A DNA stretch of 64,000 nt, taken from contig CAVXPV010000020.1 in assembly GCA_963763715.1 (NCBI GenBank), positions 78,124 through 142,123 of the forward strand. Reading direction: 5' to 3'. Shown in pieces: positions 9,029-53,325 of this stretch. This DNA is from an uncultured Solirubrobacterales bacterium (GTDB lineage: Bacteria > Actinomycetota > Thermoleophilia > Solirubrobacterales > Solirubrobacteraceae). Position numbers and translations under genes: made by a program. The notes beneath the pieces were generated by a model. That model had not been told where the DNA came from and searched no databases. It worked only from the letters and a program-made list of their open reading frames with translations. The first letter of the stretch is position 1. The number at the start of each line of letters is the position of its first letter.

Positions 9029-10056
9029 CTACCGGAACGCGCGCGGCGCCGCCGTCGAGCCCCGCACGACCAGTGACGGATCGAGCAGGATCTCCTCCGA
9101 GCGGGCGTCCACGTCGGCGAGCTGCTCGAGCAGCAGGCCCGCCGCCACCGTCCCGATCTCGCGCTGGGGCACCCGCACCGAGGTCAGCGGCGGGCGGAGG
9201 CGGTCGACGAACGGCATGTCATTGAAGCCGGTCACCGAAACGTCAGCGGGGCAGGCGAGCCCGCGGCGCTCGAGCGCGTCATAGCACCCGATCGCCAGGC
9301 GATCGTTGGCGGCGACGATCGCCGTCAGCGGGGGGGGAGCGCGAGCAGCTCCGCGCAGGCCCGTGCGCCCTCGGCCTCGGTGAACGCCGTGCAGAAGGTG
9401 ATCTGCTCGGGCTCGGCGGCGAGCCCGTGGCGCTCCATCGCCTCCAGGAAGCCGAGGTAGCGCCGGTGGCCGGTGGACACGTTCTGGGGACCGGCGACGT
9501 GACCGATGCGCGTGTGGCCGAGCCCGGCAACGTGGTCGACGGCGAGCCCGATCCCCGCCCGGTCGTTGACCGTCACCGCCGGCAGCGAGCCGTCCTCGAG
9601 GCTGCGGTTGACGAGCACGAGCGGGGCGCCGCCGGCGGCGGCATCGGCGAGCAGCTCGACGTCCAGGCGTGCGGTGGCGGCGATGAAGCCGTCCACCTGA
9701 CGCGCTCGCATCGCCTCCATCTGCAGCCGCTCGCGCTCGGCGTCGTTGTCGGTGTTGACGATCAGCGACGTATAGCCGGCTTCGCCGAGCCCGTCCTCGA
9801 TGCCACGCATGATCGGAGGGAAGAGGGGGTTGGTGAGATCGGGGATCAGTACCCCGACGGTGTAGGAGCGGTTGGTCTTCAGCCCCCGCGCGATCGGATT
9901 GGGCCGGTAGCCGAGCTCCTCGGCCGCTCGGAGCACGCGCTCGGCGGTCTCGGGATTGACCAGGCTTCGCGTCTGCTCGTTGAGCGCGCGCGACACCGTG
10001 CCCGGATGCACCTCGGCCAGCCGGGCCACGTCTCGGATCGTCACTACCGTGCGCAC
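9029..10056 (-). CDS. LacI-family transcriptional regulator (frameshift in poly-G run near 9330-9337)
   Basis: TIRDVARLAEVHPGTVSRAL HTH and YRPNPIARGL; C-terminus TGFNDMPF..PPLTSV is in a second frame. Confidence 0.9.
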
Positions 10057-27509: not shown

Positions 27510-28806
27510 TTACGCCCCCTCGAGTTCGCGCTTGACGGCGGCCAGGAACTGAGCTGACAGCACGCCATCGAGCGCGCGGTGATCCCAGCTCAGGCCCAGG
27601 ATCGTCATCGGGCGGATCGCGATCGCATCGTTGCCGGCTGCGTCGGTGACCACCACCGGGCGCTTGACCACCGCCTCGAGATCGAGGATCCCGACCTGCG
27701 GCTGGTTGATGATCGGCGTGGCCATGATCGAGCCGTACTGGCCCGGGTTGGTGATCGTGAAGGTGCCGCCACGGACGTCGTCGGCAGTCAGCTCCCGTGA
27801 GCGCGCGCGCCGGGCGAGCTCACGGATCCGCGCCGCCAGACCCTCCTCGGAGAGTTCGTGCGCGTTGTGGACAACGGGCACGATCAGGCCGTCCTCGCCG
27901 AGCGAGACGGCGATGCCCAGGTTGACCGCGTCGACACGCGTGTAGCGATCGCCCTCCAGCCAGGCATTGAGGGCCGGGTACTCGCGCAGTGCGACGATCG
28001 CTGCCCGAGCCACGAAGGCCAGCGCGGTCACCTTCAGCCGCGCCCGCTCGCGCTCGACCCGGCTCATGTCGACCTCGATCCAGGTCGTGCAGGTGGCCGC
28101 GGTCTCCAGCGAGCGCTTCATGTGCTCGCCGATCTGCCGGCGCATCCGGGACAGGCCGCCGCCCTCGGAGCCGACCCCACCCGGAGCCGCCGCGGGCGGA
28201 TCGGGCCGGTACGGGCTCTCGATGTGCAGCGGTGCCTCGGCCAGCAGGCGACCCCGAGCCGTTGCCGTTGCCGTTGACGAGCGCCAGCACGTCCTGCTTG
28301 CGCACGCGCCCATCCCGGCCGGTCCCGGCCACCGAGTCGAGATCGATCCCGTGTTCGGCGGCGATCCGGCGTGACGACGGGGGAGTAGTGGCGCCCCGCC
28401 CCCGGGCGAGGACGCGGATGAGACGATGGAACGCCCCGGCGCCGGCGGTGCGCTGGGACCCGGCGCCGGCGAATCGAGCCGCAGGCGAATCAGCCGCGGC
28501 GAAGCCGCAGCCGCCGCCCCGCCCTCCGAGCCCGTATCGAGCCGAGCCAGGACGGTGCCGACCTCCACCGTCTCGCCGACCGCGACGAGGATCTCGGTCA
28601 CCGTGCCGGCGGCCGGCGCTGGGACCTCGGTGTCGATCTTGTCGGTCGAGATCTCACAGATCGGTCGCCTCGGCGGCGATCGTGTCGCCGACGGCGACCT
28701 TCCACTCCACGATCGTTCCCTCGGCGACTGACACGCCCATCTGGGGCATGGTCACATCGAGCACATCCGTGGCCGCGCCGGCTCCGCTAGTAGTCGAGGA
28801 GCTCAC
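27510..28806 (-). CDS. Dihydrolipoamide acyltransferase E2 (several frameshifts)
   Basis: Lipoyl domain (MPQMGVSVAEGTI, EISTDKIDTEVP), E3-binding GTGRDGRVRKQDV and catalytic DHRALDG, spread across frames. Confidence 0.88.
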
Positions 28807-29751
28807 GGCACGCCTCCCTCACACGATCGACGCCGGGCAGGACGGCCTGCTCGAGCGGGGCGAGAACGGGATCGGCACGTCAGGCGTGGCGACCCGGACC
28901 ACCGGCCCATCGAGGCTCTCGAAGCCCTTCTCGGCGATCAGCGCTGCGACTTGGGCCCCGGCGGCACAGGTCATGTTCGCCTCGTCGACGATCACGACCT
29001 TCGAGCAGCGTGCCACCGAGTCGAGGATCGCCTCCTCGTCGAGCGGTACGAGCGACCGCAGGTCCAGTACCTCCACTGACGCCCCTTCGAGGTCCTCGGT
29101 CGCCGTCAGCGCGACATCCACCATCGCCCCGTACGCGATCACCACGAGGTCTGAGCCGGGCCGCGCGATCCGGGCGGTGAAAGGTGTCTCCCAGACACCG
29201 TCGGGCACGTCGCCCTTGACCCGCCGGTAAAGGTGCTTGTGCTCCATGAAGCACACCGGATTGGGGTCATGGATGGCGTGGTGCAGCAGCCCCTTGGCGT
29301 CGGCCGCGGTGGACGGGGCGACGACCTTCAGGCCGGGCGAGTGCATGAACAGCGCCTCGGGATTCTGGGAGTGAAACGGGCCGCCCGAGAAGCCGCCGCC
29401 CGACGGCAGCCGGACCACGATCGGCACGGCCAGGCCCTGGCGGTAGTGCATCTTGCCGGCCACGTTGACGAGCTGATCAAAGCCGCAGGAGATGAAGTCC
29501 GCGAACTGCATCTCGCACACCGGCCGCATCCCGACCACCGCGGCGCCGACGGCGCAGCCGATGATCGCGGACTCCGCCAGCGGCGTGTCCATCACCCGGT
29601 CGGTCCCGAACTCCTCCGAGAACCCGTCGGTGACCTTGAAGGCCCCGCCGAACACGCCGATGTCCTCGCCCATCACCAGCACCCGCTCGTCGGCGCGCAG
29701 CTCATCGCGCAGCGCCGAGGAGATCGCCTGCAGGTAGGTCATCGTCGCCAT
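28787..29751 (-). CDS. 2-oxoacid dehydrogenase E1 beta subunit (frameshift near 28860)
   Basis: GEDIGVFGGAF, DTPLAE, EMQFADF, HSQ; corrected end LEQAVLPGVDRVREACRELLDY-stop. Confidence 0.92.
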
Positions 29752-30821: not shown

Positions 30822-30954
30822 CTGGGTTGTTTCCCTTTCCTCGGTGATCGGCGCGGGATCTCCGTGCGATCGCTGTCTCGAGCGGCGACGGGATCTCCGT
30901 CGGCACTCGTTCCGGAAGCCGATCGTACCTGACTGCCGCGGTTACCCTGAGAGG

Positions 30955-31548
30955 ATGGACGGAGGCCTGCTCGCGCGTTTGCGCTGGCGCCGCAGCGGCG
31001 CCTGGATGTGGCCCACGTTCGTGGTCGTGACCGTGATCGACGGGGTGATTGTGCACACCCGTCCGATGGCGGGGGACGGTCAGAGCCTGATCGGTGGGGT
31101 CGTCATCGCGATGGTCTTCAACGTAATCGCGATCCTGCTGCTGTCACGGCCGTTCGGGGCGCTGGTGCGCCGCCGCCGGACCGACATGCCCCCGATCGTC
31201 GCCCGGGACTACGGCGGGACCGCGGCGGTCGGCCTGGTCACGCTGATCATGCTCAGCGCCGGCTCGCCCACCACGCCGCACTGAGTGACGAGCAGCACAC
31301 CCTGCGCGAGGCGATCGTCCGCGCCGAGGCGTACATCGGCGATCGGGCGCCGGACGCCGTTTCGGGCCATGGCCGGCCACACGGACACGTACACGATCCA
31401 GGCGGGCCAGATCTACCGCACCTGCGTTCCCGACCGCACCCGGACCCGGACCTACTGCGTGATCGTCAAGCCGCGCATGCCGCTGACCGAGAGCGTCGTG
31501 TTTGCGGGGTACGAACCCAATGCGGTGTTCGCCCAGGGCACCAACTAG
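30955..31548 (+). CDS. Hypothetical membrane protein (frameshifted)
   Basis: Three TM segments from MDGGLLARLRW, then a C-terminal part with YRTCVP..YCVIV in other frames. Confidence 0.6.
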
Positions 31549-31952
31549 CCGATCGGCTCGAGCTCGACCGGCAGCCGGAACAGCGAGGCAAAGCGAAGGG
31601 CCAGGAAGGGATCGCCAGTGAGTTCGAAGCGGCCGCTCGACATCAGCTCGGGCCAGCTCGCGACGCCGCCGGCGAGGCGGATGAGATCGTCGGAGGCGAC
31701 CCGCGCCCGCGCGCCCGGCCGGTCGGCGGCCCCCGCGCGGACCCGGCAGGCCCCATCGGCAACCGCCAACGCAAACCGCGCCGGCTCGCCGCCCCGCGGA
31801 TCGGGGATCGCGAGCTCGAGCACCGCCGACAGCGGATCCTCGGGGGCCACGAAGCGCCCCGCGAGCGCTCGCGGCAGCGCCCGCAGCACGATCCGGTGAA
31901 ACCACCCGATCCGGTCCAGGCGCGCGACTGCCTCCATCAGCCGGGCCTTCAC
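31545..31952 (-). CDS. SCP2 sterol/lipid-binding domain protein
   Basis: FALAVADGACRV..GA...DDLIRLAGG..MSSGRFELTGDPFLALRF pattern; GTGA overlap with the SDIMO fusion gene. Confidence 0.8.
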   Translation of the reverse strand: MKARLMEAVARLDRIGWFHRIVLRALPRALAGRFVAPEDPLSAVLELAIPDPRGGEPARFALAVADGACRVRAGAADRPGARARVASDDLIRLAGGVASWPELMSSGRFELTGDPFLALRFASLFRLPVELEPIG

Positions 31953-34292
31953 GACAGCAGGTGCTCCATCGCCTCGGTGGGGTCTGAGAACAGCATCAGG
32001 GCGTCGTCGGTGGCGACCATCCGCCCGTAGTGTGTCGACATCTCGTGCTGGATGGAGTACGCGTCGATCGCGTAGCCGAGCTCCTCGGAGATCTCGTCGT
32101 AGGGGATGACCAGCCGATCGCGGGCCCGGATGTCCCAGAACGCGGCCTGCTCGATGACCTCCGCGCGCGAGGCCATGAACCTGGCCACGGCGTCGCCCTC
32201 GGCCGACTTGGCCATCACGATCCCGACGAAGTCATAGCCGCCCACGTTGTCGGGGGGTGATTCCGCTTGCCGGGCCGACGCGAGCGGGCCGGGCCCGCCA
32301 CTCGCGGCCCGAGACGCGGGCCGTGCGGACTCCGTGACCGCCAGCGCGGCCGCGAGCACCTGCTCGCTGTAGGCGCCGACCCGCTCCGCGGCCGGGTCGA
32401 TCGCCACCGCAGCCGCCCGGGCCGCCGGCAGCCAGTCGGCCAGCCAGCCGTCGATCACCGCGCGGTTGTGCGCGCCGTGGACCGAGTCGGAGACGAGAAA
32501 TTGAGCCCAGGGCCTCTGACCAGCGCCGGGACCACTCCCACTCCTGGGTCGCCGCGCGGGCCAGGACCGGGGTGACGCTATCGCCGTGCCTGGCGGCGGC
32601 CCGGGTGCCGAGCTCGCGGCGGATCAGCGTGCCCACGGTCGGCTCGAAGGCGAGGTTGGCCGCGACCAGCACCTCGCCCCAATCGGGGGTGGCGGCCAGG
32701 CGCTCGAGGAAGCGGCGGGTCGGCTGCCAGGCGGGATCGGTCAGGAAATGCTCGCGCGCGGGGGCGATCGGGAATTCCCGGCCGAGGTGGGCCTCGAGGT
32801 CCATCGCGTAGAGCACGATCGCCTGCGCGGAACGCTGCTTGTGGGCGGCCTGCAGGCACACGCAGGTGGCGACGGTGTCCGACAGGCAGTCCCGCGCCGC
32901 GGTGGCCAGCGCAAACCACAGCCCGTGCTCGACGAAGGCCGGGATCTGCAGCGACTCACCCAAGTAGGTGACCCACTCGGGATCGAGATCGTCCATCAGG
33001 CCCTGCTCGGCGGCGGAGGCCAGGGCGCCCTCGATCTGGTGCTCGACGGCGGTGCCGGACCGATAGAAGGTCCGCTCCCACTGCTCGCCGGGATCGCGGA
33101 AGGCAAACCAATCGGTGCTGCGCAGCGCGGTCGAGGCGTCATTCCAGGTCCCGCGACCATCCTCGAAGGACACCGGCCACCCCCGCGTCAGATGGCGGTG
33201 GATCGAGGGCTGGGTGTCGACGGTCACGTCCTCGTACAGGGTCGCGCGCCGGGCGGCGGGCGCAAACCAGTTGAAGTCGCGCTCGGAGATCGCCCGCTCG
33301 CTCGGTCCCTCGGCCTGCGCGGGCGCATCGGCGGAGGTGGTGAAGCGGTCCTGGAAGATCCGGTCCTCGTCGACGCCGCGGCCGCGGAGCACGGCGTGGA
33401 CGGCATCGAGCATCGGCGGCGGCCCGCACATGTACACGTCGGGGTCAGACAGCTCCTCGTCGATCGCCTCGTGCACGAAGCGCCCGGTCACCGGCGTGTA
33501 GCGAAAGTCGGCCAGCCGCTTGCCGAGCGCGGCGATCTCCTGCGCGCAGAACAGGTCGCGCTGCTCGCGTGCGCCGTAGTAGAAGCGCACCGGGCGCTCG
33601 CACCGTTCGGCGGCGAGCTGGCGCAGCACGCCGAGCACCGGCGCCATCCCCGAGCCGCCGGCCACCATCAGGATCGGACGCGCCGAGCGCCGCAGGTGGA
33701 AGTTGCCGTACGGCCCGGTCACCCGCAGCTGAGAATCCATCTGGATCTGATTCCCAAGTTGGGAGGAGAGTCGGCCACCCGGGTAGCGCTTGATCATCAG
33801 CTCGATCGTCTTCGTGTCCGGAAGGCTGGCGATCGAGAACGAGCGGGTGATGGCCTCGGCGCCTGGCACGTGCACGTCGACGTACTGGCCGGGACGCCAG
33901 CCGAAGTCCGCCGGCACCGCCAGTGTCACCCCGACGATGTCGTGCGTCAGCTCGCGCAGCTCGGTGACCGTCGCTTCCACCTCCCGGATCGCGTTCTCGA
34001 GGCGATAGTTGTCAGGGTCGAAGTGCAGCAGCTCGATGACCAGGTCGGTCTCGGGCCGCGCGCGGCACATGAGCGCGTAGCCGTTGGCGCGCTCGGTGTC
34101 CGACAGCGCGAAGTTGGAATAGCGCTCGAGGTCGGTCGAGCCCTCCAGCACGAAGCACTTACAGGCCGAGCACTGCCCCTCACGGCAGCCGTGGGCCAGC
34201 GCGTAGCCCGAGCGAAAGGCGGCGTCAAGGACCGTCTCGTCCGGGCCGCACTCGATGCTCTCGCCGAGTGGCTCGAAGCGGACGCGGGTCAC
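31949..34292 (-). CDS. SDIMO fusion protein: [2Fe-2S]/FAD/NADH reductase + hydroxylase beta subunit + MmoB/DmpM coupling protein (one +1 indel at ~32506-32508)
   Basis: Reductase: GCREGQCSAC, LMC, RSFS, AGGSGMAP, YMCGPPPM. Beta: RRATLYEDVTVDTQP, WFAFRDP..WER, DWGE, HNRAVIDGWLADW. Coupling: VGIVMAKS..EISEELG..EMSTHYGRMV. About 780 aa after correction. Confidence 0.85.
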
Positions 34293-35914
34293 AGGATCGA
34301 GGCGGCGAGCTCGAACGGCACCGCCCCGTCTGAACTCGGAACGCCGGAGTGGTCGCCGGAGGGCAGCCCGAGCTCTGAGGCGACGCGGATGTTCGGGCTC
34401 TGCAGGATCAGGTCGTGCCTGCGGATGTCCGACAGGGTCCACTGGCGCGGGCCGCCCTCGCCCCGGTGCAGGTGCGGCTGGCCGATCAGGGTCTCGCCGT
34501 CGGTGCGCACAAACCCGAGGTCCTCGATCACCTGGGAGGCCTCCCAGCCGTCGTAGCGGTCCAGGTAGTTGCGGTCGCCGGTGTAGCGCCCGGGGTTCGA
34601 CTCATCCAGCCAGCGGCACTCCGCCGAGCAGTAGAAGCGGGTGCGCTCGCCGACGATCCGGTGGCGGCGGTCGGCCTCCTCCACGCACAGGCCCTGGCAG
34701 GTCCAGCAGAACGGCGGCGCCATGTTGATGAAGTCCAGCGGCAGAAAACCCGAGTCGGGATCGATGCCCCGGCGAAAGGCCTCCCAGAACGCGCCGTACT
34801 TGGAGTACCAGCCCGGGTAGTGGCGCTCGAACCACTCGAAGTCGCGTTCGTCCATCGGGTCAAAGCGCCAGAAGGACAGCGGCCAGGACGCGAAGGCGAG
34901 GATCGCGTGGCGGTGATGGATGCCGTTGACGATCCGCTCGCGGGCGCGCTCGAACATGTCGGTCGGGATGTTCAGGCCGAGCTTTGAGAGCTTGCCGATG
35001 TACGCCCGGTGCCAGTCGTCGCGCACCCAGCGGTCCCACTTGTCCAGGAAGCATTCGGGATCGGTGCGGTCGCGGGAGAAATACTCGATCACCACCGCGG
35101 AGAAGATGTCGATGAAGGCGTGGTTGATCCAGAACGCCTGCTGCAGGTCGCGCTCGATCAGCGGCGCGTTGTGGTCGTCCTGTAGCACCGTGAGCAGGGT
35201 CGCGTAGCCGTTGGAGATGTGGCGGGCCTCGTCGGACTGCACCGACAGGTAGGTGGTCGGCAGCGTGAAGTCGCCGTTGCGGGCGGCGACATCCGGCGTG
35301 GCCACGAAGACGATGTTGGTGAAGGCCGTCTCGGCCACCACCTGCAGCGTGAACGCGCACTGGATCGGGTCCCCGACGATGAAATGGCTGAGCATGTTCA
35401 GCCCCGGATTGGTCAGCACCGAGCCCGACATCGCCTTGGGTCCGAGATGCCAGCCGGCCGGGTCCGGGACGTTCTTGGCGTACCAGCGGGCGAGGGCCAT
35501 CTGCAGCCCGGTGTGGCGGATCTCATCGACGAACTGGACGTGGTAGCCGTTGCGCAGCTCGTTGTTGGGGACCGCGCTCATCAGCATTGACATGCAGCGC
35601 CCGGCCGCGACCTCGGCATAGTTGGTGATCACGATGAATGGCTTGAGGATCTCCAGCCAGCGCTCGTGCGCGGTGTTGGGCATATCCGCGCGGATCGCCG
35701 CGTCGTGGCCGCCGTAGACGCGCTCGTCCTTCTCAAGCTCCATCGGCAGGTACTCGCGCATGATGTGGCGCATCGGGTCCTTGGCCTTGTTCGGGAACCG
35801 GTAGCGCGTCGGGTAGCGGACGGCGGGCTGGTGGTAGTCGGGCTCCCAGCCGAGCTGGGCGATGCGGTCGTGGGTCTGGGTGATGCTCCGGCGGCGGGGG
35901 GCGGTTGCGCTCAT
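34289..35914 (-). CDS. Soluble di-iron monooxygenase hydroxylase alpha subunit (PrmA/MmoX family)
   Basis: Di-iron ligands YAE, DEIRH, VAETAFTN, QSDEARH; FEWFERHYPGW; C-terminal CWTC..FYCS..C; GQPHL. Confidence 0.95.
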   Translation of the reverse strand: MSATAPRRRSITQTHDRIAQLGWEPDYHQPAVRYPTRYRFPNKAKDPMRHIMREYLPMELEKDERVYGGHDAAIRADMPNTAHERWLEILKPFIVITNYAEVAAGRCMSMLMSAVPNNELRNGYHVQFVDEIRHTGLQMALARWYAKNVPDPAGWHLGPKAMSGSVLTNPGLNMLSHFIVGDPIQCAFTLQVVAETAFTNIVFVATPDVAARNGDFTLPTTYLSVQSDEARHISNGYATLLTVLQDDHNAPLIERDLQQAFWINHAFIDIFSAVVIEYFSRDRTDPECFLDKWDRWVRDDWHRAYIGKLSKLGLNIPTDMFERARERIVNGIHHRHAILAFASWPLSFWRFDPMDERDFEWFERHYPGWYSKYGAFWEAFRRGIDPDSGFLPLDFINMAPPFCWTCQGLCVEEADRRHRIVGERTRFYCSAECRWLDESNPGRYTGDRNYLDRYDGWEASQVIEDLGFVRTDGETLIGQPHLHRGEGGPRQWTLSDIRRHDLILQSPNIRVASELGLPSGDHSGVPSSDGAVPFELAASIL

Positions 35915-35982
35915 GCTGCGCACCCTACGCCTGTGTCACGAGTCGAATCTCTGGATTTCGGCAACGACTTGCGGCGGCCGGC

Positions 35983-35999
35983 TTGTCACAATCTGACAA
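35983..35999. promoter_or_regulatory. Inverted repeat TTGTCA-N5-TGACAA, candidate PucR-type operator
   Basis: Lies in the 84-bp divergent spacer and abuts the regulator ATG; a second TGTCAC is at 35934-35939. Confidence 0.6.
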
Positions 36000-37198
36000 T
36001 GGAAGCCAGCATTTGGCGCGCTGAGCAGCTCCCCCCGGAGGCGGTGGCCGCGGTTCGGGCTCAGCTGCCCGTCGTCGTCGACAACATCGTCGCGGCGGTT
36101 CGCGCCGACAGCCCGGTCTACGGCGAGGTGCTCGCCGGACCCGAGGGGATGGCGATCCGGGTCGGCATCGAGCAGGCCCACCGCGCCTTCCTGGCCGCGC
36201 TCGAGCAGGGGCGCCGTCCGGCCGGGGACACCGACGAGCTGTGGCGTGCCCTCGGCGAGGCCGAGTTCCAGTCCGGACGCAGCCTCGACGATCTGCGGGC
36301 CGCGTTTCGGATCGGCACCCGCGCGGCGTGGCGCGGCGCCGCCGAGCTCGCCCTCGACGCGGGGGTATCGGCCCCGGTGGCGATCGCCACCGCCGAGGCG
36401 ATCTTCGTCTACGCCGACGAGCTCGCGGCCGATGTCGTCGAGGGCTACCTGCGCATGCAGTCAGACGAGGCCGGGGAGTTCGAGCGTCGCCGCCGCCGGG
36501 TCGCCGCGCTCCTGCTCGAGCCCGATGGGCACGATCCACAGGCGCTGGCGCATGCCGCCGAGCTGGCCCGCTGGCCGGTCCCGCGCGCCCTCGCCGTGGT
36601 CGCGCTTGACGCCGACACCCCGTCGCCGGCCGCTCGCCGACACGAACTCGGCGCCCTGGCCGGAGCCGACGCCGACGGCGCCTGGCTGATCGTGCCCGAC
36701 CCCGACGGGCCGGGTCGTCCGGCGGCACTGGCCCGCGCCCTCGCCGGCCCGCCCGCCGATCAGGATGGTCGGCCGCGGGTGGCGCTCGGACCCTCGGTCG
36801 CGCCCGCCGCCGCCGCCCGCTCGCTGCAGTGGGCGCGGGCCGCGCTCGCGCTCGCCCGTGAGGGCCTGATCGCCGCCGACGGACTCGTGCGGGCTGACGC
36901 GCACCTGCCCGCGATGGTGATCCACCAGGACCGGGACCTTGCCGCGGCGCTGGCCGCGCGCGTCCTGGCCCCGCTCGACGAACTGCCGGCCGCCGAGCGG
37001 TCGCGCCTACGGGCGACCCTCCGGGCCTGGCTGGACCACCAGCGCCACACCCCGCAGGTCGCGGCCGCGCTGCATGTCCATCCCCAGACCGTGCGCTACC
37101 GGATGGCCAAGCTCTCAGAGCTGCTTGGGGACGCGCTCGAGACCCCGGACGGGCGGTTCGCGCTCGCCCTAGCGCTGCGGGCGGCTGGGCCGCGCTGA
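35999..37198 (+). CDS. PucR/CdaR-family transcriptional regulator
   Basis: C-terminal TLRAWL...VAAALHVHPQTVRYRM HTH; N-terminal GRSLDDLRAAFRIG. Confidence 0.9.
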   Translation: MEASIWRAEQLPPEAVAAVRAQLPVVVDNIVAAVRADSPVYGEVLAGPEGMAIRVGIEQAHRAFLAALEQGRRPAGDTDELWRALGEAEFQSGRSLDDLRAAFRIGTRAAWRGAAELALDAGVSAPVAIATAEAIFVYADELAADVVEGYLRMQSDEAGEFERRRRRVAALLLEPDGHDPQALAHAAELARWPVPRALAVVALDADTPSPAARRHELGALAGADADGAWLIVPDPDGPGRPAALARALAGPPADQDGRPRVALGPSVAPAAAARSLQWARAALALAREGLIAADGLVRADAHLPAMVIHQDRDLAAALAARVLAPLDELPAAERSRLRATLRAWLDHQRHTPQVAAALHVHPQTVRYRMAKLSELLGDALETPDGRFALALALRAAGPR

Positions 37199-51267: not shown

Positions 51268-53325
51268 TCAGCCGGTGTAGGCGTTGTAGACCACGCCGGT
51301 GGTGAACAGCGTCAGCTGCGGGTTGTTGGCATAGCCGAGGCGCGAGAGCGAGAACAGCTGCTCGATGCTGCCCAGCAGCGAGTAGTGATTGAAGTAGTCC
51401 AGCGTGTCCTCGCTGCCCGGCTTGACGTACTTGGACAGCAGCAGCATTCCGAGCTGCCCGCCGCCACCGGTCGCCGTCGTCTGCCCGCCCGAGAGCGGGG
51501 CGGTGGTCGTGGCGCTCGTCGTCGTAGTGGTCGTGGTGGTTGGCGCCGAGGTCGTCGTCGGGGTCGACCCGGCCTCGGTCGTGTTCCCTGGCGTGGTGCC
51601 GGCCGCGGTTGTCGTCGTCCCCGGTGCGGTGCTGGCCGCGGTTGTCGTCGTCCCGCTCGTCGTGGTCGGGCCCGAGGTCGTCGGCGGCACCGGCAGGTTC
51701 GGGTAGACCGGGTTGTTGCAGCAGGCGCTCGGGTCCGCCTCCGGACCACTCTGCGGCGCGTTGTCGGCGGTGATCGCGATCAGCCCGCCGTTCTTGTACG
51801 CCGGCGAGGCCCTGATCTCGGAGATCGTGGTCTTGAGGAATGAGTCGGTCGCTGCGGCCGCCGCCTTGGGGTCCGCGGCCTGGCCGGGGGCGCAGGTCAC
51901 CTCGCTTCCGTCGTCGCACGGGCTCGGGGCGATGTAGGCCAGCGTCGGCGTGGTGCGCTCCTGGCGCAGGTCCTTGGCCAGCTGTTCGAAGCTGACGTCC
52001 TGCTGGGCGCAGCTCGTGGACTCCGTGATGGACTGGAAGTAGACGAACGGGTTGCGCCAGGTGACGTAGGGGCTGGCCGCGGACGCCGTCTGGGCGCTGT
52101 CAGCGGTGCCGAGGTTCGGATGACGGCAGGCGGATTGGCCTCCAGCGGGGGTGGTCCCGGTCGTGCCTGTGGTCCCGGTCGTGCCTGTGGTCGCGGTCGT
52201 GCCTGTGGTTGCGGTCGTGCCTGTGGTTGCGGTCGTGCCTGTGGTTGCGGTCGTGCCTGTGGTTGCGGTCGTGCCTGTGGTGCCGGTCGTGTCCGTCGTC
52301 CCGGCCGCGGGCGTGTTGGCGGACGGGACGGTCGCGCTCGAGCTGGTGCCCGAGGCGGACCCACTCGTGCCGGCGGGCGCGGGCGCCGTGCTCATCCCCT
52401 CCACGTAGGCCTTCCACGTCTGACCGTTGGCGGTGAGCTGATCGGGCAGGTTCTGGGCGTTTGCCGGGTACACGCAGCCGTCGCCCTGCGTCTGCTTGCC
52501 CTTGCCCAGGGTGCCCGGCGTGATCGCCGTGTACTGCGGGCAGTCGAGCATCGTCTGCCGGGTCGGTCCCTGGCCGCTGATCATGGCCACACCGTTGGCG
52601 AGCGGGCTGCCGGCCACGCCGTAGTAGTTGTCAAGCAGTTCGCCCTGCTTGCGCAGTGTGTGGGCAAGATAGGGGAAGGCCGAGCCCGGGCCGTAGAGCG
52701 ACTTGAAGCCCTGGCTGGAGAGCATCACGACGAACACGTGCTTGACCGGGGGAAGCGCGGATCCGCTCGGGGCTGCGTGCGCGGCGGGGCCGCCCCCGCC
52801 TCCGCCGCCACCCGTCGAGCCGCCCCCGGGAGCGGTGATCGTCTGGGCCGCGACGGTCTGCACGACGGTCGTCGTTCCGCCGCCGCCTCCGCCTCCGGAG
52901 CCCGAGCCGCCGCCACCGGTTGACGCGGCCGAGGCCGGTGCGGCGGTCGCCGCCTGAGGTGGCGCGTAGGCGACGATCATCGGCGCCGAGCTGTTGGCCA
53001 GCGAGGTCGCCCCGGATCCCACGACGACCCCGAAGGCGAGCATCGACATCACGGCCAGCGCCGCCGCGCGCGGTGGCAGTGTGGACAGAAATGCTGCGGC
53101 CCGGCTCTCCGCAGACGCAGCGGGGCCAAGGAGCCCGCCCGGCCACGGCACCGGCTCTCCGGCCGCCGCGGCGGCGGCCAGCGCCACCAGGTCCGGGGGC
53201 AGCGGCACACAGCGAGCCCCGCAGTTGACGCAGTAACGCTGGTCCGGGGCCAGCGGCACGCGGCATTCGGCGCACGTCGCGACATGGCGGGAGACGACGG
53301 AGATCGGAAATCCGGGAGCGGTCAC
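51268..53325 (-). CDS. Phosphoesterase/alkaline-phosphatase-superfamily protein with N-terminal double zinc ribbon, TM helix and Thr-rich linkers
   Basis: CAEC..CVNC, TM, then VKHVFVVML, SPLANGVAMISGQ, WKAY, NPFVYF, NHYSLLGSIEQLF. Start approximate. Confidence 0.75.
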   Translation of the reverse strand: MTAPGFPISVVSRHVATCAECRVPLAPDQRYCVNCGARCVPLPPDLVALAAAAAAGEPVPWPGGLLGPAASAESRAAAFLSTLPPRAAALAVMSMLAFGVVVGSGATSLANSSAPMIVAYAPPQAATAAPASAASTGGGGSGSGGGGGGGTTTVVQTVAAQTITAPGGGSTGGGGGGGGPAAHAAPSGSALPPVKHVFVVMLSSQGFKSLYGPGSAFPYLAHTLRKQGELLDNYYGVAGSPLANGVAMISGQGPTRQTMLDCPQYTAITPGTLGKGKQTQGDGCVYPANAQNLPDQLTANGQTWKAYVEGMSTAPAPAGTSGSASGTSSSATVPSANTPAAGTTDTTGTTGTTATTGTTATTGTTATTGTTATTGTTATTGTTGTTGTTGTTPAGGQSACRHPNLGTADSAQTASAASPYVTWRNPFVYFQSITESTSCAQQDVSFEQLAKDLRQERTTPTLAYIAPSPCDDGSEVTCAPGQAADPKAAAAATDSFLKTTISEIRASPAYKNGGLIAITADNAPQSGPEADPSACCNNPVYPNLPVPPTTSGPTTTSGTTTTAASTAPGTTTTAAGTTPGNTTEAGSTPTTTSAPTTTTTTTTSATTTAPLSGGQTTATGGGGQLGMLLLSKYVKPGSEDTLDYFNHYSLLGSIEQLFSLSRLGYANNPQLTLFTTGVVYNAYTG
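52151..52294. repeat. Eight tandem 18-bp units (GTGGTNSCGGTCGTGCCT) encoding TTGTTA/TTGTTG
   Basis: Read directly; in frame inside the phosphoesterase gene. Confidence 0.9.

Follow-up and report, generated by a model that had tools for sequence, protein, structure and literature searches.

This report concerns an operon within a stretch of 64,000 nucleotides (the window) from an uncultured member of the Solirubrobacterales, a soil actinobacterium represented by a metagenome-assembled genome (MAG; G000) of 30 contigs that is estimated to be 72% complete. The operon probably encodes a soluble di-iron monooxygenase (SDIMO) of the group 5 type that is built from two catalytic genes, not four: one for the alpha subunit and one for a reductase-beta-effector chain of about 780-800 amino acids, with the frameshift that interrupts the second gene in the window being an assembly error. 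To judge from the sequences, three helper proteins that are usually separate (the reductase, the beta subunit, and the effector or coupling protein) form one chain of about 800 residues in relatives, and this fusion is real and conserved. It is apparently new relative to the systems that have been described.

The SDIMOs, which include soluble methane monooxygenase (sMMO) and the propane, tetrahydrofuran (THF)/dioxane, and alkene monooxygenases, are valued for the oxidation of alkanes and pollutants. They are hard to express and to study, as three or four separate proteins are needed at the right ratios. How the reductase and the effector share the surface of the hydroxylase is still debated, and we know of no solved structure of an sMMO-type hydroxylase-reductase complex. 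A natural fusion would fix the stoichiometry and hold both partners at the hydroxylase. It would provide a ready-made system with which to trap and image the reductase-bound and effector-bound states, and only two catalytic genes, in place of four, would have to be expressed in a heterologous host. Such a conserved fusion makes both the interplay of the components and a simpler expression of SDIMOs directly testable.

Reading Frames and Domains of the Operon

The features of the operon are collected in Table 1. The stop codon of the alpha gene and the GTG start codon of the fusion gene (34292) overlap in the sequence GTGA. The open reading frame (ORF) at 32232-34442 on the minus strand, for which this GTG is the true start, holds the Fer2, FAD_binding_6, and NAD_binding_1 domains of a reductase and the Phenol_Hydrox domain of a beta subunit in a single stop-free frame. 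The reductase motifs CREGQCSACKC/LMCRA, RSFSIAS, GGSGMAP, and MCGPPPM were all located. Past ...WSEALGS, the first frame becomes Arg/Gly/Pro-rich junk down to the stop codon at 32232. The C-terminus of the beta subunit resumes in the adjacent frame as FLVSDSVHGAHNRAVIDGWLADW..., followed by the second linker, the MmoB_DmpM domain, and the stop codon at 31949. This second-frame segment was found by tblastn to be 85% identical to residues 617-800 of P0005, the closest intact homologue (802 aa). All three minus-strand frames are free of stop codons both at junction 1 (33447-33226) and at junction 2 (32457-32234).

The original prediction, made from the letters of the window, had placed the reductase and beta subunit in one stop-free frame and the effector in the adjacent frame, with stop-free junctions in all three minus-strand frames. 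The frame map agrees on each of these points, and Pfam matched all five of the expected domains (Fer2, FAD_binding_6, NAD_binding_1, Phenol_Hydrox, and MmoB_DmpM) across the two frames. The claim that the beta subunit lacks the usual N-terminal arm is not supported. The profile of the beta domain can be aligned to MmoY, TouE, TmoE, and the beta chains of phenol hydroxylases; the alignment to MmoY begins at about residue 26, some 45 residues of high conservation lie ahead of the helical core, and the linker replaces only the first ~20-25 residues of the unfused beta orthologues.

Table 1. Features of the SDIMO operon and the divergent regulator gene (window positions)
Feature	Position	Strand	Description	Evidence
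Alpha subunit of SDIMO hydroxylase	34289..35923	-	544 aa, di-iron centre	Pfam Phenol_Hydrox, E 2e-48
Fusion gene, first frame	32502..34292	-	597 codons; reductase, linker, beta	Pfam, motifs, stop-free
Fer2	34050-34271	-		Pfam, above cut-off
FAD_binding_6	33696-33974	-		Pfam, above cut-off
NAD_binding_1	33396-33668	-		Pfam, above cut-off
Linker 1	33285-33338	-	18 residues, Ala/Pro/Ser/Glu	
Beta subunit	33284 onward	-	begins at ERDFNWF	Pfam Phenol_Hydrox at fusion-ORF residues 372-596
Single surplus nucleotide	32501..32508	-	+1 relative to three relatives, within CTGGGCTCAATTTC	MAFFT DNA alignment with L013, L014, L015
Fusion gene, second frame	31949..32500	-	183 codons + stop; beta C-terminal helices, linker, effector	Pfam, tblastn, dN/dS
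Linker 2	32237-32326	-	30 residues, Pro/Ala/Gly/Ser	
MmoB/DmpM effector domain	~31991-32236	-		Pfam MmoB_DmpM, E 3e-16, 59.8 bits vs cut-off 25
SCP2 (sterol-carrier-like) protein	31545..31952	-	135 aa, third operon gene	Pfam SCP2, E 8.5e-7
PucR/CdaR-type transcriptional regulator	35999..37198	+	399 aa from Met 35999, divergent	weak NCBIfam CdaR/PmfR

Conservation of the Fusion

Homologues were sought among 5.8 billion proteins (lengths of 327-1042 residues), and the best 120 matches were considered. All five Pfam domains are contained in one protein of ~750-910 aa in 112 of these best 120 matches, and the architecture put forward in the original prediction is therefore found in other genomes. 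The 120 proteins, at 65-91% identity, were drawn from assemblies of NCBI, JGI, ENA, and Logan, in which some of the contigs are 1-5 Mb long. Where a source is named, it is a Solirubrobacteraceae or Actinomycetota MAG. The eight exceptions are the frameshifted copy from the window itself, two frameshifted relatives, partial proteins at contig ends, and a few short entries.

The fusion was also followed at the level of DNA. Residues 3-800 of P0005 were aligned by tblastn in a single frame to seven genomes of the same genus (L002-L008) and to contigs L013 and L014. Among 200 genomes sampled across 51 genera of the family, three further genomes of the same genus (G089, G128, and G162) and one of a second genus (G055) carry the fusion, and in G055 a continuous ORF runs from the start of the reductase to the stop codon of the effector. 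Uninterrupted, single-frame copies are thus present in at least 11 sampled genomes from two genera, contrary to the possibility, raised with the original prediction, that homologues always have separate genes. An exhaustive search of 1.84 billion representatives of 50%-identity clusters returned a single full-length representative that covers the whole fused family, the remaining strong matches being single components or fragments; the fusion is therefore confined to one tight clade. Matches of odd length from this search were considered as candidates for fusions that arose independently in other lineages, and were rejected: P0123-P0128, P0250, and P0270 belong to the same family, as fragments or as copies with a frameshift, and P0226 is an unrelated reductase-DUF2336 protein.

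The Surplus Nucleotide and the Quality of the Assembly

The window sequence was compared with contigs L013, L014, and L015, which belong to relatives at ~90% identity (88-91%). Removal of one A at 32502/32501 gives ALGSFLVSD, for which the relatives have ALASFLISD. The original prediction had called for the removal of one G at ~32506-32508. It was correct that there is one base too many and that its removal restores the frame; the resulting AL-AQFLVS, however, fits the relatives less well than the product obtained when an A is dropped. Either removal leads to a read-through product of 780 aa, and the surplus base is most parsimoniously one of the two A's at 32502/32501, as judged from the alignment. 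Independently, a scan of the phase of G+C content at third codon positions (GC3) placed a phase switch at C20:110627, which is position 32504 of the window.

This is not the only frameshift in the vicinity. Over the syntenic ~17 kb, the alignment identified frameshifting indels that are found in the window only at 32502, 31354, 31263, 28861, 28664, 28369, and 28244. The six other than 32502 fall in three neighbouring genes within 5 kb. In the gene for a 197-aa membrane protein (30952-31545, plus strand), which lies between the SCP2 and E1-alpha genes, one nucleotide is missing at ~31263 and one is added at ~31354, and these two indels, 91 nt apart, compensate for each other; between them about 30 codons are misread, including a TGA at 31282, where the relatives are continuous (...LAHHAALT.EQHTLREAIVRAEAFIGD...). 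The genes of a 2-oxoacid dehydrogenase (27513-29751, minus strand) are split between frames in E1-beta (~28861) and in E2 (~28664, ~28369, and ~28244). The genes for alpha, E1-alpha, LplA, the regulator, the permease, and the SCP2 protein around these indels are intact.

The same pattern was observed across the assembly. Frameshift-like phase switches on the same strand, counted where the upstream frame has no stop codon within 100 nt, occur at 80-156 per Mb in G000 (for example, at C17:213752, C19:89085, and C17:150921) versus 15 per Mb in a finished, single-contig relative, a density that is approximately 5-10 times higher. A spot check with Pfam found a split acyl-CoA synthetase (AMP-binding/AMP-binding_C), a split FtsH (Peptidase_M41), and a truncated ATP-grasp gene. 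This was the second such check; the raw counts from the GC3-phase Viterbi analysis (567 and then 207 sites) had been dropped when the first returned no split genes among five sites. From the scan we retain the ratio to the finished relative and the second spot check, and beside them stands the direct three-way comparison of DNA. Since indels are dense in the same 5 kb and throughout the assembly, ftsH included, the frameshift in the window is read as an artefact: on this comparison of sequences it is most likely an error in an indel-rich MAG, and the actual copy of the gene would be intact.

Of the other two sites that the GC3 scan flagged in the window, one is an unremarkable boundary between genes and the other a Thr/Gly repeat. 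The repeat (...TTGTTATTGTTATTG...) lies inside an ordinary ORF at ~52100-52500 on the minus strand, skews the G+C content by codon position, and mimics a frameshift in composition scans. Indel errors may also contribute to the completeness estimate of 72% for G000.

Classification as a Group 5 Enzyme

The set of SDIMO components is complete, with a di-iron alpha subunit, a beta subunit, an MmoB/DmpM effector, and a reductase composed of Fer2 and ferredoxin-NADP reductase (FNR)-like domains. A phmmer alignment to chain A of 1FYZ demonstrated that alpha retains all six of the di-iron ligands of MmoX (E114, E144, H147, E209, E243, and H246). The best annotated match to alpha in the plasmid collection is ThmA from Rhodococcus ruber YYL, with 51.4% identity over 97% of the length, whereas the identity to the group 6 alpha subunits from M. 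dioxanotrophicus PH-06 and M. chubuense NBB4 is 41-42%. Known substrates of group 5 enzymes are propane, acetone and other ketones, THF, and dioxane.

In PMC11825192, group 5 is defined by an alpha identity of at least 40% and by an operon of four genes in the order alpha, reductase, beta, and coupling protein, and a subgroup that contains ThmADBC is described as rich in MAGs of Actinomycetota. The operon in the window has the identity in alpha, the order of components, and the branching with ThmA that are expected of group 5. The group 6 records, in contrast, have the order alpha, beta, effector, and reductase, with a GroEL gene close downstream. By sequence and order the system is thus assigned to group 5, and the original prediction was right about the order, since the domains here follow that of thmADBC. 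The reductase, beta subunit, and effector, however, occupy one frame in the relatives, and here also but for one nucleotide. Because there are not four separate genes, we count the system as a variant of group 5 and not as an ordinary member.

Origin of the Fusion

In the other families of the order, the orthologues are unfused and the three proteins are encoded by separate genes. The reductase of G038 and G030 ends with ...FTTSADA... and a stop codon, and the ATG of the beta gene follows three codons on in the same frame; the effector gene is in another frame. In G028, the reductase, beta, and effector genes are in three different frames. The reductase-beta linker of the fused protein from G055 still retains the ancestral N-terminus of the beta subunit (...GPSAPVKRFERGAGQPAGDDAERRFQWY versus MATGPPVKQVGDGKGRRGDEPERSFQWY in G038). 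Because the reductase and beta genes of unfused relatives adjoin in frame, junction 1 can be explained if the stop codon that separated a prmB-like gene from a prmC-like gene three codons away was lost. Junction 2 would have required a frame-merging change at the end of the beta gene that joined it to the effector gene. The intermediate forms in the relatives would then illustrate a route from a multicomponent to a fused enzyme through stop-codon loss between in-frame neighbours.

A maximum-likelihood tree was constructed from 16 alpha subunits, with a midpoint root and one characterised group 5 reference. The alpha subunits from fused operons are monophyletic (99/99) and are sister to the unfused orthologues from the Solirubrobacterales (99/99). 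The pair of group 6 alpha subunits (100/100) is well apart from the fused clade and ThmA.

A second, unfused SDIMO cluster is present in some genomes of the same genus (G022:C54:30441-32318, G009:C114:24549-26452, and G024:C12:149692-151600). Its reductase is 47-49% identical to that of the fused system, and its alpha subunit ~41-43%. The second-cluster alpha subunits from G022 and G009 group with a Prm-like enzyme encoded on a plasmid of Methylocella tundrae and not with the fused clade.

Selection, Predicted Structure, and a Possible Mechanism

The invariant residues among 51 full-length homologues (62-92% identical to P0005) include the four Fe-S cysteines, RSFS, GGSGMAP, and CGPPPM, together with a large part of the beta core and most effector-domain residues. 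The ratios of nonsynonymous to synonymous substitution rates (dN/dS), determined pairwise between the window gene (read through) and close relatives, were 0.17 for both the reductase and beta and 0.05-0.13 for the effector, whereas the second linker gave 0.3-0.4. All three modules are under purifying selection. Together with the fused relatives and the unfused sister families, this agrees with the two-gene SDIMO with tethered reductase and effector that was envisaged in the original prediction.

From the alignment of the 51 homologues, AlphaFold2 returned confident FNR (100-337), beta-core (404-674), and MmoB (706-802) modules. The predicted local distance difference test score (pLDDT) is below 50 at 338-403, which comprises the linker and the conserved N-terminal arm of beta, and at 675-705; the predicted template modelling score (pTM) is 0.45. 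So low a pTM is as expected for beads on a string, and the model depicts modules joined by disordered tethers. The N-terminal arm of beta should become ordered only against alpha. Among the homologues, linker 1 varies from 12 to 50 residues, and the segment between the last conserved beta helix and the effector from 47 to 128 residues.

On the model of sMMO and the group 5 enzymes, the beta domain would pair with alpha to form an alpha2(reductase-beta-effector)2 hydroxylase with an alpha2beta2-type core. Electrons would pass from NADH to FAD, to the [2Fe-2S] cluster, and on to the di-iron site. Docked on alpha, the effector domain at the C-terminus would gate both the activation of O2 and the access of substrate. 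The tethers on beta would fix a 1:1:1:1 stoichiometry and would allow the reductase and effector to alternate, intramolecularly, at the surface of alpha. No gene for a gamma subunit or a separate ferredoxin is found in the operon. In its most complete form, the proposal is a natural, self-sufficient SDIMO of two polypeptides in which the ferredoxin and effector domains alternate during each cycle and the SCP2 protein is an unrecognised component for substrate delivery; this full version is plausible, but we stop a little short of calling it probable.

Weighing of the Alternatives

Several observations weigh against a group 5-type enzyme of two catalytic genes whose frameshift is an assembly error. 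The GC3 scan yields many false positives, and the G+C content of the control genome is lower (66% versus 70%). The node that joins the combined fused and unfused Solirubrobacterales clade to ThmA has only moderate support (83/82). No component reaches the cut-off of an NCBIfam equivalog: P0005 scores 64.6 bits with the MimD model, for which the cut-off is 150, and 120 bits with the MmoY model, for which it is 700; MimD is the top NCBIfam match to the effector domain of P0005, again below the cut-off; no NCBIfam model matches the alpha subunit of the window at E 1e-5; and the cut-off of the MimABCD/propane-2-monooxygenase equivalog (NCBIfam NF045941 and relatives) is not attained. With scores below these thresholds, the substrate is therefore not transferable from MimABCD or ThmADBC. 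Finally, P0003 (L015, ~9980-10010) and P0006 each have an independent 1-nt frameshift elsewhere, in the linker between beta and effector, which shortens the called proteins to 683 and 705 aa, and the gene table for L015 also lists a separate MmoB protein of 88 aa. The simplest explanation of these frameshifts is error in GC-rich DNA of low complexity; otherwise they reflect a recurrent undoing of the second fusion.

It is unlikely that the frameshift at 32502 is genuine in this strain and that the ancestral triple fusion is now a pseudogene or has been split again. A re-split gene would produce a reductase-beta protein without the last ~50 residues of beta and with a junk tail of ~90 aa, plus a 169-aa protein made of the beta tail and the effector. 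Such an ORF does exist, since an in-frame GTG at 32458 opens 169 codons that include the whole MmoB domain; the surplus base stands in the assembled sequence, and the frameshifts of P0003 and P0006 occurred independently in the same inter-domain region of close relatives. However, the truncated beta would be without its conserved C-terminal helices, and the downstream effector is under strong purifying selection and carries no other lesion. The six additional indels in three conserved genes nearby, two of them compensating, and the broken copy of the essential ftsH form a pattern that fits consensus errors and not the decay of one gene. The density of indels in the assembly likewise makes improbable the alternative offered with the original prediction, in which the gene is broken by a genuine indel at 32507. 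Programmed ribosomal frameshifting at 32501-32508 would join the frames in vivo and would account for two long overlapping frames that each encode part of one conserved protein. We considered this explanation and rejected it as next to impossible: in L013, L014, and L015 a single frame spans these residues and this site has no shift, the shifts in the other relatives lie elsewhere, and the assembly is rich in other indels.

The alternatives to an intact fusion in the family as a whole concern the protein and the assemblies. The chain of ~800 aa may be a polyprotein that is cut in its disordered linkers to release free reductase, beta, and effector after joint translation for assembly and stoichiometry, and we regard this as quite improbable. 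Both linkers are long, disordered, of low complexity, and poorly conserved, and would be accessible to a protease; an intact fusion would also block the N-terminal tail of the effector, which is important in sMMO (PMC9628860). The linkers, on the other hand, vary freely in length and sequence and contain no conserved cleavage motif, and no gene for a dedicated protease is conserved in the operons of L013-L015. Multidomain redox fusions, of which the self-sufficient P450s are examples, usually function intact. As most of the sequences derive from MAGs and metagenome contigs, the fused ORFs might instead be artefacts of assembly or gene calling, with genes that are really separate. This explanation is effectively refuted by the same continuous frame in over 100 non-redundant clusters, whose projects and assemblers are independent of one another (short-read megahit, JGI, Logan, and multi-Mb contigs), by junctions that are free of stop codons in all frames, by linkers that contain no start codon or boundary resembling a ribosome-binding site, and by the systematic differences between these linkers and the unfused outgroups.

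Comparison with Known Systems

We found no description of an SDIMO reductase-beta-effector fusion in open-access papers and bioRxiv, and a term search of a 2025 review of the SDIMOs (PMC11825192) did not return the words "fusion" or "fused". The ThmADBC systems from Rhodococcus ruber YYL (pYYL1.1) and Pseudonocardia are the most similar, with the closest annotated alpha subunit, the same functional order, no gamma subunit, and no Rieske ferredoxin. They are encoded by four separate genes, however, with a reductase of 362 aa, a beta subunit of 346 aa, and an effector of 117 aa, and these last three are fused here. The neighbours of ThmADBC are aldehyde dehydrogenases and IS elements, whereas those of the fusion operon are the SCP2 protein and the PucR-type regulator. 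The same set of components and the same gene order are found in PrmABCD and MimABCD of Gordonia, Rhodococcus, and Mycolicibacterium, which PMC11825192 places in group 5. The difference is that here three components out of four form one chain, and the MimD score is far below the cut-off of the equivalog. The automatic annotation from JGI names the fusion proteins [quoted passage not shown]. These proteins of ~800 aa are now named "MmoB/DmpM family protein" or "2Fe-2S cluster-binding protein", and our analysis corrects this automatic annotation.

In sMMO, the reductase and effector share or compete for overlapping surface on the hydroxylase. Its structures are the closest that have been solved: the alpha subunit matches MmoX with an E value of 5e-88 and has identical di-iron ligands, the beta subunit aligns to residues 26-359 of MmoY, and the reductase of the fusion aligns to the FAD and ferredoxin (Fd) domains of MMOR. 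In contrast to the fusion system, sMMO (MMOH alpha2beta2gamma2, MMOB, and MMOR) has a gamma subunit, another gene order, and free components at non-equimolar ratios, whereas the stoichiometry of the fusion system, which has no gamma, is covalently fixed. The effector of sMMO binds in the alpha/beta canyon, and its free N-terminal tail matters for activity (PMC9628860).

The tethering of a redox partner through a flexible linker is similar in principle to that of the self-sufficient P450s, such as P450 BM3 and CYP116B/P450-RhF, the latter with an FMN/[2Fe-2S] partner of the phthalate-dioxygenase-reductase type. PDB chains of P450-type fusions (6laa and 6kbh) match the FNR-like part of the profile. 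The oxygenase family is unrelated, however, and the reductase of those enzymes is carried on the catalytic subunit, whereas here it is carried on the non-catalytic beta subunit, the effector is joined as well, and the catalytic alpha subunit is separate. Partners have also been tethered by design in an engineered mini-sMMO, in which a truncated hydroxylase alpha is genetically joined to a domain of MMOR, and Gly-rich linkers tether MMOB nearby (PMC11116448). That construct is man-made, with a ferritin scaffold and truncated parts, unlike the natural, full-length, and conserved fusion described here.

Genomic Neighbourhood

The operon of the alpha, fusion, and SCP2 genes faces the PucR/CdaR-type regulator and a permease of the APC family. 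Orthologues of the regulator at the same position in relatives carry the Pfam domains PucR-like_N/HTH_30, and that from L013 is 83% identical (tblastn). Beyond the operon are the genes for the conserved 197-aa membrane protein, the 2-oxoacid dehydrogenase complex, LplA, and a radical-SAM protein that is probably lipoyl synthase. This gene order is conserved in L013, L014, and L015. The gene tables of these three contigs list no GroEL-like chaperonin and no alcohol dehydrogenase within ~8 kb of the operon. The NCBIfam models did not permit the nearby E1/E2 2-oxoacid dehydrogenase to be assigned a specificity for acetoin, pyruvate, or branched-chain substrates, and no pathway is drawn.

The SCP2 gene is translationally coupled to the fusion gene through a GTGA overlap with the stop codon at 31949. 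All of the fused operons that were examined have such a coupled gene: the window, L013 (10474-10905), L014 (4577-4966), L015 (10385-10780), and L058 (G055). Downstream of the unfused cluster of G030 the SCP2 gene is absent, and a GMC-oxidoreductase-like gene is present instead. The SCP2 protein may be a clade-specific accessory for the handling of substrate. The GMC-oxidoreductase-like gene of G030 (L011, 3943-4866) has an apparent change of frame at ~4250, and that genome may carry indel errors too.

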